Positions 3,299 through 48,264 of a stretch of DNA of 64,000 bases are shown here, piece after piece. The notes beneath the pieces are model-generated. The model ran no database searches. It saw nothing but the letters and a program-made list of their open reading frames with translations, and was not told where the DNA came from. Made by a program: the position numbers and the translations under genes. The DNA lies in assembly GCA_951406725.2 (NCBI GenBank), contig OX597833.1:1178001-1242000 (forward strand). The letters are read 5' to 3'. How positions within the stretch are numbered: the first letter of the stretch is position 1; every line of letters begins with the position of its first letter. Source of the stretch: Octopus vulgaris (Eukaryota).

Positions 3299-3800
3299 TC
3301 GATAACTATATACGATCTTCTTACGTCGTACTTAATCATCGTTTAAAACCAATCAGACGGTGGAGGTGGACGGAAATTTAGTCTCAGATGAAACACACGC
3401 CAGCGGTTAACATTGCCTCAACATTCGTCTGTATTTCATTTCTGCTCTTCAGCATCGTTTTACAATTTCGACTCCCCCCCCCTTTACATGTTCTTCCAAA
3501 GCAATGAATACGAAATTCTCACAAAGTATTAATGTGTAATATCTGAACGGCTTTATATCTGTCTATTTATTACTTTATTGATGTACTCGTCTATCTGGCT
3601 TTGTCTGTCTCTGTTAGTACATCTACATATATAGTTATTAACTCCTAAGTCCTTGCTTCTTTTCTTATTGATTCATCTACCTACCGACCTAGCGCTCTGT
3701 CTATTTACCTATTAAATAATGTAACTCTTTCTAAGTAGTCCGTCTAAGTGAACAAATTTAAACACTTGCGCGTTTAGTCTTTTCCCTATATATATATATA

Positions 3801-26359: not shown

Positions 26360-27735
26360 ATTCATGGTTTATTTTTTATTTTACAGCTTTGATGAGTGGT
26401 GGAAATATTGCAGCTAGAGCAATTTTACGCTAGCTTTGGAAAAGGAAATTAAGGATGTGGAAGACCCAGGAATTATCAATGAGCGTGAGGCACAAAATTG
26501 GTTGAGACGTTTCAGGAATGATGACACCAGCCTCGAAGACAAACCAAAGTCAGGGAAAACTTCTGTTGTGGAACATAAGGCCTTGCTTGAAATAGTTGAA
26601 CAACAACCAAGCACCAGCGCTCGTACATTGTCGGCAGCACTTGGTCCTTCACAAACTACTATCAATTGATTCCGCCATAGCTCAGCCATGTGAACAAACG
26701 CTGTCGAGAAGTTCCCCGTGAACGGACCTATGATTATTCTCAACGACAAATGAACATTTGAGAAAAACTGTTGACAAATCCTCCAGGTGCCCGTTTTTGA
26801 CGTCGAATGGTTACTGGAGATGAAAAATGGTGACTGGAGATGAAAAATAATCCTTATAGGACAAATCGGTTGCTTCAAAACCTGTTGACAAATAACGACT
26901 GTTTGAACATCTTTATATATAAAAGAGAAGTTGAGTGTCTGTCTCCTACGATTTAGATTCCTAACTACTCCCAGATTTTGCGGTGCAGTTTAACCAAACC
27001 CGGGTATCTTATAGTCGTGATTCATATCGAGCTCTTCTGGGTATTAGCGCGCGTCTACGATGAGTCTACGATTTTAAAAATAATTTACCATAATTTTTTT
27101 CCATTTTAATACATTTTTTCGCCATTATAAGGGAAGTAACTCTCTAAAAATGTCTACGATGAGTCAACGATTTTTAAAAAAATTTACCATAATTTTTTTT
27201 TCCATTTTTAATGCATTTTTTGCTATTTTTTGGCTATAACTCTCTAAAAATGCTTATATAGTTATTTCCCTTACAAACCCGAGCAACGCCGGGCGATACT
27301 GCTAGTGAGGTATAAATGTATGTTTGGTAGAGTTCTTGTGTTGCACTTTGTGATCATACTCGGAAGAGTAAGCTTTGTGTTCAAGAACCACAGCCAGCAT
27401 ACGATGTGTTGAAAACCTGCCACTTGGCATTAGTCAATCGAAAATGCGCCCTCCCACAGCATGACACTGTCCCAGCTCACACTGCCGATATGACTCAGCA
27501 AAAGCTTGAAGAACCCGAGGGGCTGGAAGTGATACAATCACTAAGCCTACAATCCATGACTGGTAACATCAGAGTACCACTTTTCCCGAGCCATTGCTCA
27601 TTTCTTGAATGGACAGAGGATCGACAATGCGGATCGGTTACAGAATATTTTTGCCTCTAATCCTTACAATTGTTGCAAACGTGTAGAGTTTCTACTACAA
27701 CGAAGGGAACAGACAGCAGAATATGATAGGATATA
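26360..27735 (+). mobile_element. Decayed mariner transposase interrupted by a Helitron
   Basis: HTH region AQNWLRRFRNDDTSLEDKPKSG, RMVTGDEKW at ~26805, LVNRKCALPQHDTVPAHTA at ~27430, C-terminal RREQTAEYDRIY. Confidence 0.85.
26910..27305 (+). mobile_element. Non-autonomous Helitron
   Basis: 5' TC (tctttatatataaa), 3' hairpin cccgagcaacgccggg then CTAG, inserted between A and T with no TSD. Confidence 0.85.
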
Positions 27736-27915
27736 CTGTTGTGTCTGGGGAGAGTCATTTTCTTTTTGTGCCTTATTATGTAACACACTCACCGGTAAAA
27801 TTTCCACATATTTCTTATTTTAGGACAATAAAATAAGAAATAAGTGGAAATTTTACCGCTGAGTGTGTTATATAATAAGGCACAAAATGAAAATGACTCT
27901 TCCCAGATACAACAG
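27736..27915. mobile_element. Palindromic MITE (180 bp)
   Basis: ~86-bp arms ctgttgtgtctggggagagtcatt... and ...aatgactcttcccagatacaacag; TA on the left flank. Confidence 0.8.
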
Positions 27916-28370
27916 AATATGCTTCAACACAAACCAAATCCAAAAACGAAATATGATAGAATATATATTTTGATGAATAAACGCTTTCTGTATACAGTTC
28001 GTTCGAACTATTTATTAAAGCTTGTAATATGGGAAACACATTGGACTCAATCACGCTTTTTGTTTAATCAACTTTAAATATGAATAAGTGCGAATTAGGA
28101 CTGGTAGAGCATCGGATAAATTACTCTGTGCACCGCTAATAACAATAGTAGTACATTTAGCTTTTACACGACATCTCTCCCTAGCTAAGTACATCTAGCA
28201 TTTAATAGATGCCAGCATGAGGATCACAGAATCACTCTTGTAGTTTGTTTGCTTATTTTTAAATAGGGGTAAGTGTGCGAATCAATATAACCCTTAGGGC
28301 ATCGGATAAAATGTATTTTGTCCGAAACTCTGGCCCACTCTCTATTAAAGAATATGATAATGCAAGTATT

Positions 28371-35383: not shown

Positions 35384-35940
35384 AGAAAAATGAAAAGTGG
35401 AACGGCTATTAGGAGGTAACTGCAGATTTACCTGGGTGCCAGGTTTTCTTTCCCATCCCAGTTTCGAAAAAACCAGATATTTTGATGTGGTGTGAAAGAA
35501 AGAAAGTTGTAAATATAGTCGAGCTAACGGTTCCTCACGAAGATAATATGGATGCCGCTCGAGCTCGAAAATCAAACCGTTATGAAAACCTCCTCGAGGA
35601 ATGTGAAGACGCAGGCTGGAAAGCGGAACATTTTCCTACCGAAGTCGGATGTAGAGGGTTTGTAGGACACAGCGTTAGACGACTGTTGTTATCGTTAGGC
35701 CTAACTCATCGTAAAGTCAATACCACCATGGCTGATATCCAATATACAGTGGAGAAGGCTAGCCACTGGATTTGGTTAAAAAGAGACGATGAGCGATGGT
35801 TAGAAGAATATTGAGTTCTTCATAACCAACTGATCTAGCAAGCGGGGCCTCATATCAGTGAGGGGGGGCGGTGCGCATTGATGCCGTCGAGAGGTAGGCC
35901 CCGAAACGGCGCGCATTCTCTCCTGATGACCCCATACACT
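35384..35940 (+). mobile_element. HERO-type non-LTR retrotransposon 3' end (restriction-like endonuclease plus 3' UTR)
   Basis: ADLP..FP..KPDILMW..IVELTVPHED..KSNRY..GW..EVGCRGF..EKASHWIWLKR; stop at 35814; starts immediately after (TG)n. Confidence 0.85.
35872..35937 (+). ncRNA. Permuted hammerhead-like motif in the HERO 3' UTR
   Basis: gccGTC-gagag ... GAAAC-ggc ... ctctc-CTGATGA; stems I and III pair, stem II is weak. Confidence 0.55.
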
Positions 35941-36879
35941 TGCTAGCTTCCGATATACGGAGCTTTTAACTGGTAGCACTTGCATGTGCAAGTTGTTTGC
36001 AAGACATCTGGGGGTTTATTTACCGACACTGAACTGCCGACAGAATTTAAACTTGGCGTGACTTCAAATCAGAACGTAGATACCCGGAACAGTTACCGCA
36101 ACGTCATCTATCCGACGCTCTAACAACTTTGTCAATTGGCCAATGCACCACCTAAATACCTATTTATCTATGGATACATCTTTATCTCTCTATATATATC
36201 CAACTAACTATCCATCATTTCATTTATCGCTAAACCTCTCTGTTTATCTATTAATCTTTCAGCCTCGCTGTTTATCTATCTACCTATCTACCTATCTACT
36301 TATCTCAATAGATATCAATCCACCTTGCCATATCGGATTCAAAAACATCTGTGCTTCACTTAATTCCATATTTTAACTTCCACTTCACCCAGGAATCGCA
36401 GGGCAATTACGCTTAAATATATCTGTTCTATATCTTTTGTCACTCAGTCGTTATTTCAACACAATTATTTCCTCTTTTAGAAACTAAAGAATGCTTATTT
36501 TTTTCAATTACCTATAATTATATATTTTCTGAGCCTTTGTCTTTATGATCACGCACCGACCTGTGTGTGCATGTATTCATGTTATACGTAAAAATACAAA
36601 TACACTTCCAAATGTATGTGTTTATATATGTAGGTATAAAGAGATAGATAGATAGATAGATAGATTAAGCAAGAAATAGAATCATGAGTAAATATCCACA
36701 AAAATATATATAAATATTCCAGTATATATAAAATACTTCAATATATGTAAATGTAATTGCATATGATTATATATAATTCTATATAATTATCTAAATATAT
36801 ATATATACATATACATACATACATACATGCATACATACATACATACATACATACATACATACATACATACATACATACA

Positions 36880-46453: not shown

Positions 46454-47427
46454 TCTATTTTTTCATTGTTTAAGAAAAATGTCCATTTCCTTGGTTTTGT
46501 GTTTATGTTTTCGTTTCTCATTGTGTTCGACGTTTTTTGGTGTCCTGTACCCATATATGCATGTATATATACATGTAAAGGTAGGTACGTACATATATGT
46601 ATGTATATATGCATATGTTTTATTTATTTATTAATTTATTATATGACGGAACGCACGCATCCATTTCTAAGTAAGATTGTTCTTAATATTTATAATGATG
46701 TGCACTCTTAACCTTCTCTCCCCCTCTCTTTCTCAGCCTTCATTCTTTTGGCTTTCCTTTCCTTCTACCTTACTGTCTCTCTCTCTCTCTCTCTCTTTCT
46801 TCATTATTTTCTCTACAGCCATTCCCTTTTTTCTCTCCCTTTCTCTTACTCCTCCTCCCTCCCGTCGTTGACCCGCGACGAGAACTCTGCTACTGTCTTT
46901 CTTCTCCTGGCTACCTTCAAGTAGAGACGGCACATCTGTTGCTCCCTCGCCGTTCTCAAAAAATAGCGTTCGTAAAAGATGTTATCTCGTTCGGCTTAAC
47001 AGCCCTTCTTGTTTGTGTTACTGTTATTCTCCTTGTCCTGTCTTTTACTGTTTATATTTTGTACTGTCGTTACTGTCCTGTTTTTGTTGACATTTTACCC
47101 CTCCGCAAAAAAATCGCAAATTTTATTTAATTTGAAGGATTGTTTCATTAAAGTCATGTATCGCCTTGACCTTCGAAACGTGGAGTAGATGAAACAAAGG
47201 CGACTGAAGAAGGGGAATTTTCCTTGTTTTGTATGTCCTGTACTGTATTTTTTCGTTGTTTAAGAAAAATGTCCATTTCCTTGGTTTTGTGTTTATGTTT
47301 TCGTTTCTCATTGTGTTTTTTTTTGTGTCCTGTACCCATATATGCATGTATATATACATGCAGAGGTACGTACATATATGTATGTATATATGCATATGTT
47401 TTATTATTTTATTAATTTATGATAGAT
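46451..47427 (+). mobile_element. Element with ~190-bp direct terminal repeats (period 790), Penelope-pLTR or retrozyme-like
   Basis: 46451-46644 is repeated at 47241-47427; TA-rich flanks; hammerhead motif just before the second repeat. Confidence 0.6.
47141..47215 (+). ncRNA. Non-circularly permuted hammerhead ribozyme candidate
   Basis: catGTA-tcgcctt / cttc-GAAAC-gtg / aaggcga-CTGAAGA-a-gggg, plus an extra helix tgtttcat/atgaaaca. Confidence 0.65.
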
Positions 47428-48264
47428 ATATATATATTTATATATATACTATAAGAAGGTATGAACGAAGTAACGTTACGGTTTCATGCGACAGGAGAAT
47501 GGCCGAACCATGTGGAAGATTTTCGTTGAAGTGTTGGCATCAACGTATTGTAAAAGTTTACGATACATGACAACGAAGAATATTCTAAGAGAACTACAAC
47601 AATATCTTCTAACCATCTACAAATCAATAGCACAAATGATGAAATATTTAGTTAATCCCTGATTTTAAGCAATTTATAAACAAGAATAAATACGTAAGAA
47701 AATGGCGCATATTCGTCGAGGAATAAAAGAAGAATGAAAGGAAGTGATTATCTGATGACTTTACATACGTTTCCATAGAATGCATGAATATTTGGTTAGG
47801 AATTTGTTGCATTTCGTCTCACATCATAGCGTCGTTAAAACAGAGGTTGATCTGTGGTTTGATTATACAATGACGACAGACGATATGTACCGGTTATTTT
47901 GTACTACCAAGCAATATATTACGTACACGACATGATTCAATAATCATTCATATAATTATATAATTATATATGTATGTATATGTACGTATATATATATGTG
48001 TGTGTGTGTGTGTGTATGTCTGTATGTGTGTGCGTGTGTAAATGCACATACATATAACAAATTAGAATGAATGGAATCCATTATTAAGTTATCATACGGA
48101 CATTTCCATATAATGATTATTTACAATTCATATATATATGGATATATGATATATATATATATATATACACATACGTATGTACATATACATGTAGCGATAT
48201 ATACATACATATAAAACACACATAAATATACATGTGTACATATATATAAAAATATATTTATTAT

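Follow-up and report, generated by a model that had tools for sequence, protein, structure and literature searches.

A permuted hammerhead core in the 3′ UTRs of HERO-type LINEs, its predicted split fold and a possible circular RNA template

The window analysed here (a stretch of 64,000 nucleotides from contig OX597833.1 of Octopus vulgaris) contains a truncated LINE copy in whose 3′ untranslated region the three conserved blocks of the hammerhead ribozyme occur in an unusual order. The locus raises the question of whether these blocks can form a ribozyme and, if they do, what a self-cleaving RNA at this position would contribute to the replication of the element. The most far-reaching reading compatible with the evidence is a scheme in which HERO elements would replicate through a circular RNA made by a hammerhead with a split core, by internal priming and rolling-circle reverse transcription, in a design shared with unrelated retroelements; for this scheme as a whole the chances appear even.

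The element and its permuted core

The window copy (35384..36008; all features described here lie on the + strand) is a 5′-truncated RLE LINE copy of the HERO clade, with boundaries taken from BLAST, that is 97-98% identical to other copies and corresponds to the final ~625 nt of a unit 3738 nt long. It is probably a truncated product that is inactive by itself, and probably a dead passenger. A full unit of 3738 nt (L031:4595-8332) has a single ORF of 1175 amino acids, whose translation contains an N-terminal C2H2 finger, a reverse transcriptase (RVT_1 match, E 5.7e-19), a CCHC knuckle and a C-terminal RLE, the motifs having been read from the translation. Only the last part of this ORF remains in the window, as a 133-aa RLE frame (35413..35814; PDILMW...VELTVP...EVGCRGF) that ends at the stop codon 35812-35814. 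The family comprises 2728 first-look candidates in the 2.8-Gb genome.

Homologues include lancelet and fish proteins, and 53 of 84 reverse transcriptase residues are identical to HERO-1_BF in the supplement of PMC7650587, a count made by eye; R2 proteins are distant, reaching only E~1e-17. The flanks of the insertion sites are varied and many lie in TA/CA repeats, and the available definition of the HERO clade (PMC4640811) describes insertion as non-specific or microsatellite-biased. Both the domain order of the ORF and this insertion pattern are those of HERO elements, to which the element likely belongs. It has neither a GIY-YIG nuclease nor a telomerase-like reverse transcriptase; it resembles Penelope-like elements (PLEs) in the tandem layout described below, yet it is not a PLE.

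In the window copy, GTC (35886-35888), GAAAC (35903-35907) and CTGATGA (35923-35929) follow one another in the order S-G-C, the non-circular (SGC) permutation of the hammerhead core. Block S (35882..35893) consists of a stem III strand, GUC and the stem I strand GAGAG, with the predicted scissile bond after C35888; block G (35897..35911) consists of the 3′ strand of stem II (C11.1 being 35902), GAAA (35903-35906) and the other stem III strand; and block C (35918..35929) consists of the stem I strand CTCTC and CTGATGA, without its stem II strand. Stem I pairs GAGAG 35889-35893 with CTCTC 35918-35922, stem III pairs TGCCGT 35882-35887 with ACGGCG 35906-35911, and an extra helix pairs TGCGC 35872-35876 with GCGCA 35911-35915, G35911 being common to the extra helix and the stem III strand. 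These three pairings had been proposed in an earlier note, made from the sequence alone, which also placed the permuted blocks in the 3′ UTR of a HERO-type LINE about 70 nt after the stop; they are found as described, with 74 nt between the stop codon and the predicted cut. The full motif spans 35835-35946 and is longer than the 35872..35937 given there.

The conserved elements of the hammerhead core (CUGANGA, GAAA, and NUH with A15.1-U16.1) are all present, and the blocks follow the order of type-SGC ribozymes, S, G, C; the motif is not of type I, II or III, which have the orders CGS, GSC or SCG, and it has no Rfam hammerhead match. At the motif itself Rfam models gave no hammerhead and two chance matches, and the best 150 of the 779 Rfam matches listed for the window are all microsatellite-driven miRNA models. 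A structure descriptor run on both strands of the 64-kb window had two matches, the HERO motif and a motif at 47141. The nested minimum free energy fold of the motif is not significant (z -1.1), as expected because the proposed fold is pseudoknotted.

The core is intact in all 30 family copies that were fetched. More distant relatives were retrieved with a profile of the RLE domain, which gave 79 metagenome loci (from the best 80 of 302 metagenome matches) and five loci from a genome collection, 30-54% identical; addition of the element's own copy brought the set to 85 loci, in which the diversity of the HERO family is represented by metagenome loci only. Viral contigs were searched and contained no relatives. 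GUH, GAAA and CUGANGA together with stems I and III were found within 480 nt of the RLE match in 52 of the 85 loci, compared with none of 85 reverse strands, one of 2460 dinucleotide shuffles and none of 68 coding stretches. When the reach was extended to 900 nt and any base was allowed at position 17, there were 55 matches; N17 is never G, and GUC is replaced by GUU or GUA in 34 of the 55. Among the 33 misses, nine records end too early, three share a single GAAA>AAAA change, and at least six carry a recognisable motif below the thresholds or further downstream; the majority of the misses are thus degenerate copies or records that are too short. Two loci that passed the core descriptor (L132 and L138) are retained in these counts, lack the stem II described below and sit on long branches; they are probably spurious. 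Motif-bearing and motif-less rows are interleaved in an RLE tree made by a quick method. In one small clade of related loci (L095, L116 and L130), no motif was detected out to 466-2500 nt from the RLE domain; this clade offers a natural comparison for asking whether partial tandems need the ribozyme. The motif is thus shared by the family and by other HERO elements, and the hammerhead core of HERO 3′ UTRs is, by this comparison of sequences, real and clade-wide.

HERO-like RLE pieces also occur in contigs filed under bacterial genomes (L136, L135, L137-L139), two of them with the motif, and are probably eukaryotic contamination; one such contig, of 539 kb, is ORF-poor with 37% GC in the fetched part.

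A predicted upstream strand for stem II

The part of the core that does not fold in the ordinary way is stem II, which the earlier note had described as weak with C-C at its closing position. The C-C opposition at the supposed closing position is there; the weakness was not borne out, since stem II has 4-6 bp when it is formed with a partner upstream. A canonical stem II, in which the strand right after CUGANGA closes the helix with or without a 1-nt bulge, was rejected, its closing pair being present in 7 of 42 relatives, no more than expected by chance (0.17); what follows A9 pairs instead in another helix, P0. Folding of a dimer, considered as a way to rescue stem II, was superseded once the upstream strand was seen to pair.

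The predicted stem II has its 5′ strand at 35864..35869, beginning with G10.1 and pairing with GGCCCC 35897-35902; the window copy has GGGGGC where the majority of the family has GGGGCC, which leaves one mismatch. Upstream of it lie the 5′ strand of P0 (35835..35847) and a hairpin, H (35848..35863), set flush between P0 and stem II. In P0, CTAGCAAG at 35835-35842 pairs with 35939-35946 and GGGG 35844-35847 pairs with CCCC 35930-35933 right after A9, so that the 3′ strand occupies 35930..35946. A further helix, P4, has its 5′ strand at 35870..35876, which pairs with 35911-35917; it bridges stems II and I at their distal ends, as the 'I' helix does in type-SGC ribozymes.

Comparison of 42 non-redundant motifs supports this arrangement. 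The partner strand of stem II starts 20-26 nt upstream of the cut, and G10.1 is opposite C11.1 in 38 motifs and opposite U in the other four. Positions 2-5 of the stem are paired in 40, 41, 41 and 37 of the 42; each position shows 3-5 pair types, and the 3′ strand occurs in 23 different sequences. At least five Watson-Crick pairs are formed in 30 of 42, compared with 5% when partners are swapped. P0 has at least 7 bp in 26 of the 42 (10% with swapped partners), and in 25 of these 26 relatives with a clear P0 the hairpin H fits flush between P0 and stem II with no spare base. When the position of the stem II strand was predicted blind from P0 and H alone, the prediction was right in 25 of 26, compared with 15% with swapped partners. 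Stems I and III show 3-6 pair types at most positions, both stems having been search criteria, so that covariation is seen in all three hammerhead stems, in stem II by way of the upstream strand. P4 forms 4-12 bp in all 43 non-redundant motifs, a figure from a best-helix search with no null for P4, and connects stems I and II at their distal ends, as is characteristic of type-SGC ribozymes. A kink-turn pattern (a 3-nt bulge with tandem G-A/A-G pairs, from stem III to P4) is present in 28 of 43 motifs, counted with no null, and is absent from the window copy and its four nearest relatives.

The fold is very probably 5′-P0a-H-IIa-P4a-[III-GUH-I]-[IIb-GAAA-III]-P4b-[I-CUGANGA]-P0b-3′. It can, with the same high confidence, be read as a type-SGC ribozyme whose two termini have been joined and whose chain has been opened anew between A9 and G10.1, P0 and H occupying the gap. 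No solved structure of a four-way junction at A9/G10.1 was found in the literature.

Copy layout, stubs and the proposed cycle

The earlier note had suggested that the ribozyme might define the end of the RNA: it would trim the transcript, and target-primed reverse transcription would use the cut as its 3′ end. The location in the 3′ UTR agrees with this suggestion, but every one of the 30 aligned copies retains the entire motif and goes on for ~120 nt beyond the cut, and in full-length copies the motif is also found upstream of the 5′ start. A trimming function of this kind is therefore most improbable. The conserved tail (35889..36008 in the window) ends where reverse transcription is inferred to start internally.

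The 5′ ends were studied at 30 fetched 5′-UTR loci (from 99 candidates, of which 40 were scored), and 24 of them reach the start of the unit. These full-length copies are 85-100% identical to the unit, and 23 of them clearly, and one borderline, run upstream into their own tail, which makes them partial head-to-tail tandems; two of these loci may have arisen by duplication of a single one. Where the case is clear, the upstream repeat is 31 to 1981 nt long. Eighteen of the 24 cross the cut seamlessly, none stops at the cut, and none has a whole upstream unit. The junction at the cut is also seamless in 30 of 30 aligned copies, and no insertions of 1-12 nt at the bond were found in family copies matching both flanks. 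At many 3′ junctions, 0-6 nt are shared with the beginning of the following unit. Among the relatives, 12 of 53 loci with at least 300 nt of downstream sequence run into the N-terminus of a HERO protein, a count that collapsed repeats in assemblies may lower and that short-read metagenome contigs, which can fake tandems, may raise.

Several other features of the copies were observed. Many internally deleted copies (L177, L184, L186, L187, L189, L147 and L164) consist of the first 260-840 nt of the unit fused to its last 300-630 nt; their right-hand breakpoints cluster at unit positions 3313-3434, and they are possibly non-autonomous derivatives or the result of reverse transcriptase jumps. At L033 (G000:C11:84626500-84635500), two copies are inverted head-to-head with an inverted duplication of the flank, which recalls inverted PLE insertions. 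The 5′ UTRs of HERO elements contain GGAAAGAC/GGAGAGAC repeats at a spacing of ~20 nt, often preceded by CAGTGAC and conserved across distant elements (L031:4615-4720, and downstream of the motif in L075, L078, L103, L114, L115, L117, L127 and L128); they are possibly a promoter or a protein-binding signal.

A product of the cut itself may be recognised among the shortest copies. Genome-wide searches for exact patterns with the break at the predicted bond gave 11 matches, nine of which are true 120-nt stubs that start at the base following C35888. The nine are independent, having unrelated flanks and belonging to different subfamily variants, and none is followed by a unit start (0/9); a tenth stub occurs among the 30 copies that were selected by their tails. 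Controls with the break at other positions gave one at -8, one at -3, two at -1, two or three at +1 and none at +6. The excess at the bond (binomial P 2-7e-4) is an approximately sixfold enrichment over five control positions, which are few, differ in CpG content and include two, -1 and +1, that may share the signal. Stubs are rare, at ~1% of copies. T precedes eight of the nine, so that in some of them the break may lie at -1 and the C have been deaminated. The 5′ flanks of L220-L230 place AT before seven of the nine stubs, and the 3′ ends are GACAT/GATAT, possibly a 2-bp AT target duplication.

Because the core is invariant and stubs start at the bond, cleavage at the predicted site is likely to occur in vivo. 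A non-catalytic RNA element that derives from a hammerhead or resembles one, such as a binding site for the HERO protein or a positioning signal for reverse transcriptase, is an alternative explanation. LINE 3′ UTRs generally bind the protein of their own element, the core is interrupted at A9/G10.1, and catalysis is here a prediction from sequence. However, all catalytic positions are preserved, and the NUH rule is obeyed, in elements that share only 30-46% identity in the RLE domain, and stubs start at the exact bond predicted for a hammerhead. The non-catalytic explanation is accordingly held to be improbable, if less so than trimming.

The second motif of the window (47134..47225) has the same block order as the HERO motif, as the earlier note had claimed, with blocks at 47160/47175/47204, and it too has an upstream stem II strand (GAAGG / CCTTC-GAAA). 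It is not part of the HERO element. The family to which it belongs (window 46800-47450; L036-L055, L244-L250) is a ~1-kb repeat with 2746 candidates, apparently non-coding and with a TA-rich 3′ end, and its fetched copies have no similarity to HERO proteins; the earlier suggestion that the architecture may recur in unrelated elements thus holds for this family. Its copies also form partial head-to-tail tandems (L047, L052). Of seven pattern matches, three start at the predicted cut, a number for which there were no control positions, and two have a 2-nt insertion there. Elsewhere in the window, a near-perfect inverted repeat of ~200 nt (27725-27925), with a match to the MIR2630 model below threshold, is probably a MITE.

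In the cycle proposed here, a partial-tandem locus would be transcribed through two motifs, and cuts at both would release an RNA of the form [120-nt tail][5′ UTR][ORF][3′ UTR to GUC], whose ends could be rejoined at the same bond into a unit-length circle. Reverse transcription would start internally, at the joint of tail and 5′ UTR, as suggested by the fixed 3′ end of the copies and by short matches between 3′ flanks and the beginning of the next unit. On linear RNA cut at both motifs the priming site would lie 120 nt from the 5′ end, and only a 120-nt stub could be made. On joined RNA the reverse transcriptase would copy round the ring, producing ordinary 5′-truncated copies or, if it went on beyond a full turn, another partial tandem able to serve as a donor in its turn. 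The assignment of stubs to linear RNA, and of truncated copies and new tandems to joined RNA, is slightly favoured; under it, copies longer than 120 nt would require that the two cut ends be joined. Favoured by a similarly narrow degree is the combined reading that the SGC-order core with its upstream stem II self-cleaves and that the rejoined circle is copied from an internal start.

Two other templates have to be weighed against the circle. The first is an uncut read-through transcript of the tandem locus, with cleavage that is real and is slow or regulated, serving another role such as 5′ processing for translation, RNA turnover or copy-number control. The insertion of PAc, discussed below, is a precedent (PMC11167929); the site is traversed in the majority of copies, stubs being few; GUU or GUA is the common triplet in relatives; and one contig of a presumed RNA run bridges the tail and the 5′ start, which is weak support, as it has 35 nt on one side and fits DNA tandems equally; none of the sequencing runs that contain the element is recorded as RNA, and all of them give contigs. 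Yet an uncut template is disfavoured because the upstream repeat would not be renewed: upstream repeats could only shrink over generations, whereas 23-24 of 24 full-length copies have one. Moreover, no full upstream unit exists, the longest upstream repeat being 1981 nt, and no copy has its start at the upstream cut, which is where copies of an RNA cleaved at that site alone would begin. Read-through is thus judged unlikely.

The second is a linear unit-length RNA whose two ends are both defined by the ribozyme, with the reverse transcriptase jumping from the 5′ end to the 3′ end and no covalent circle. The reverse transcriptase of R2 is capable of template jumping, the same partial tandems and stubs would be explained, and the 2-nt insertion at the bond in two 47141-family copies is more easily explained by a jump than by ligation. 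On the other hand, such insertions are missing from the HERO family copies, the junction is seamless in all those aligned, and a precise jump would be required for each copy exceeding 120 nt. A ligated circle is favoured over the jump because the joint is seamless, and the jump is assigned the same low probability as read-through. Comparison of repeats within loci does not single out the circle, because at only 3-4 of 18 loci (L175, L180, L179 and, marginally, L184) do they resemble one another more than they resemble other copies, and at several they are further apart. The template is, on balance, probably Penelope-like and circular.

Known hammerheads and ribozyme-bearing retroelements

The SGC order has already been published. 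It is described in the accessible text of Eckert 2023 (PMC10085705), where CUGAnGA and its stem II strand are assumed to be contiguous and where SGC ribozymes are stated not to have been found in genomes of known organisms. Two things are new relative to that text: the CUGAUGA-stem II block is split, and the host is a LINE. A split between A9 and G10.1 is excluded by the six permutations published there. The literature searched contained no HERO hammerhead and no split-core permutation, and used 'type-SGC' only in Eckert 2023; most subscription papers, Repbase Reports and patents lay outside it. Hammerheads of Penelope elements have an extra nucleotide at position 9/10.1, according to the available part of Cervera 2014 (PMC4209133).

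If the proposed fold is correct, a hammerhead topology exists that the six-permutation scheme bars by assumption, and counts of ribozymes in animal genomes are too low, because Rfam models miss this topology. A hammerhead would also be present in an autonomous RLE LINE, a group in which the literature, as far as it was accessible, describes HDV-like ribozymes at the 5′ end. If the cycle is correct, a whole clade of LINEs would have a Penelope-like life cycle, possibly with circular RNA, and would prime internally, against the textbook priming at the RNA's 3′ end. The long-standing idea of ribozyme-made circular templates for partial-tandem retroelements becomes testable in a young and nearly intact family, and uses of RLE retrotransposons for gene insertion may depend on the right form of template.

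The type-SGC ribozymes (HRIMA-1 and variants, PMC10085705) resemble the HERO motif, in their available description, in the S-G-C order, the full core, the short linker from stem I to stem II and the helix that joins the far ends of these stems. They differ in having the stem II strand right after CUGAnGA, whereas in the HERO motif this strand is located on the 5′ side, P0 and H being placed between A9 and G10.1; and their cleavage has been demonstrated, whereas that of the HERO motif is predicted and its hosts are genomic LINEs. Naiad elements (Craig 2021, PMC8557442) carry an 'HHR_half_core' that is comparable in that halves of the core lie outside canonical descriptors, in the 3′ UTR of a partial-tandem retroelement; the accessible account proposes no fold for it, and Naiads are PLEs. 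The HDV-like ribozymes of R2 and other non-LTR elements, as described in the portions of the literature available, likewise free the RNA of an RLE LINE from a co-transcript, but they belong to another ribozyme class, lie at the 5′ end, make one cut and have no tandem requirement. The closest parallel to the proposed cycle is in PLEs, for which Cervera and de la Peña (PMC4209133, in its accessible part) proposed the same circular cycle, and for one of which, PAc (Frangieh 2024, PMC11167929), insertion in vitro does not need cleavage and uncut RNA is the main template. In the available parts of these two papers, PLEs combine a telomerase-like reverse transcriptase and a GIY-YIG nuclease with minimal type-I hammerheads in pseudo-LTRs. 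HERO elements, in contrast, are RLE LINEs whose predicted hammerhead is pseudoknotted and non-circularly permuted.
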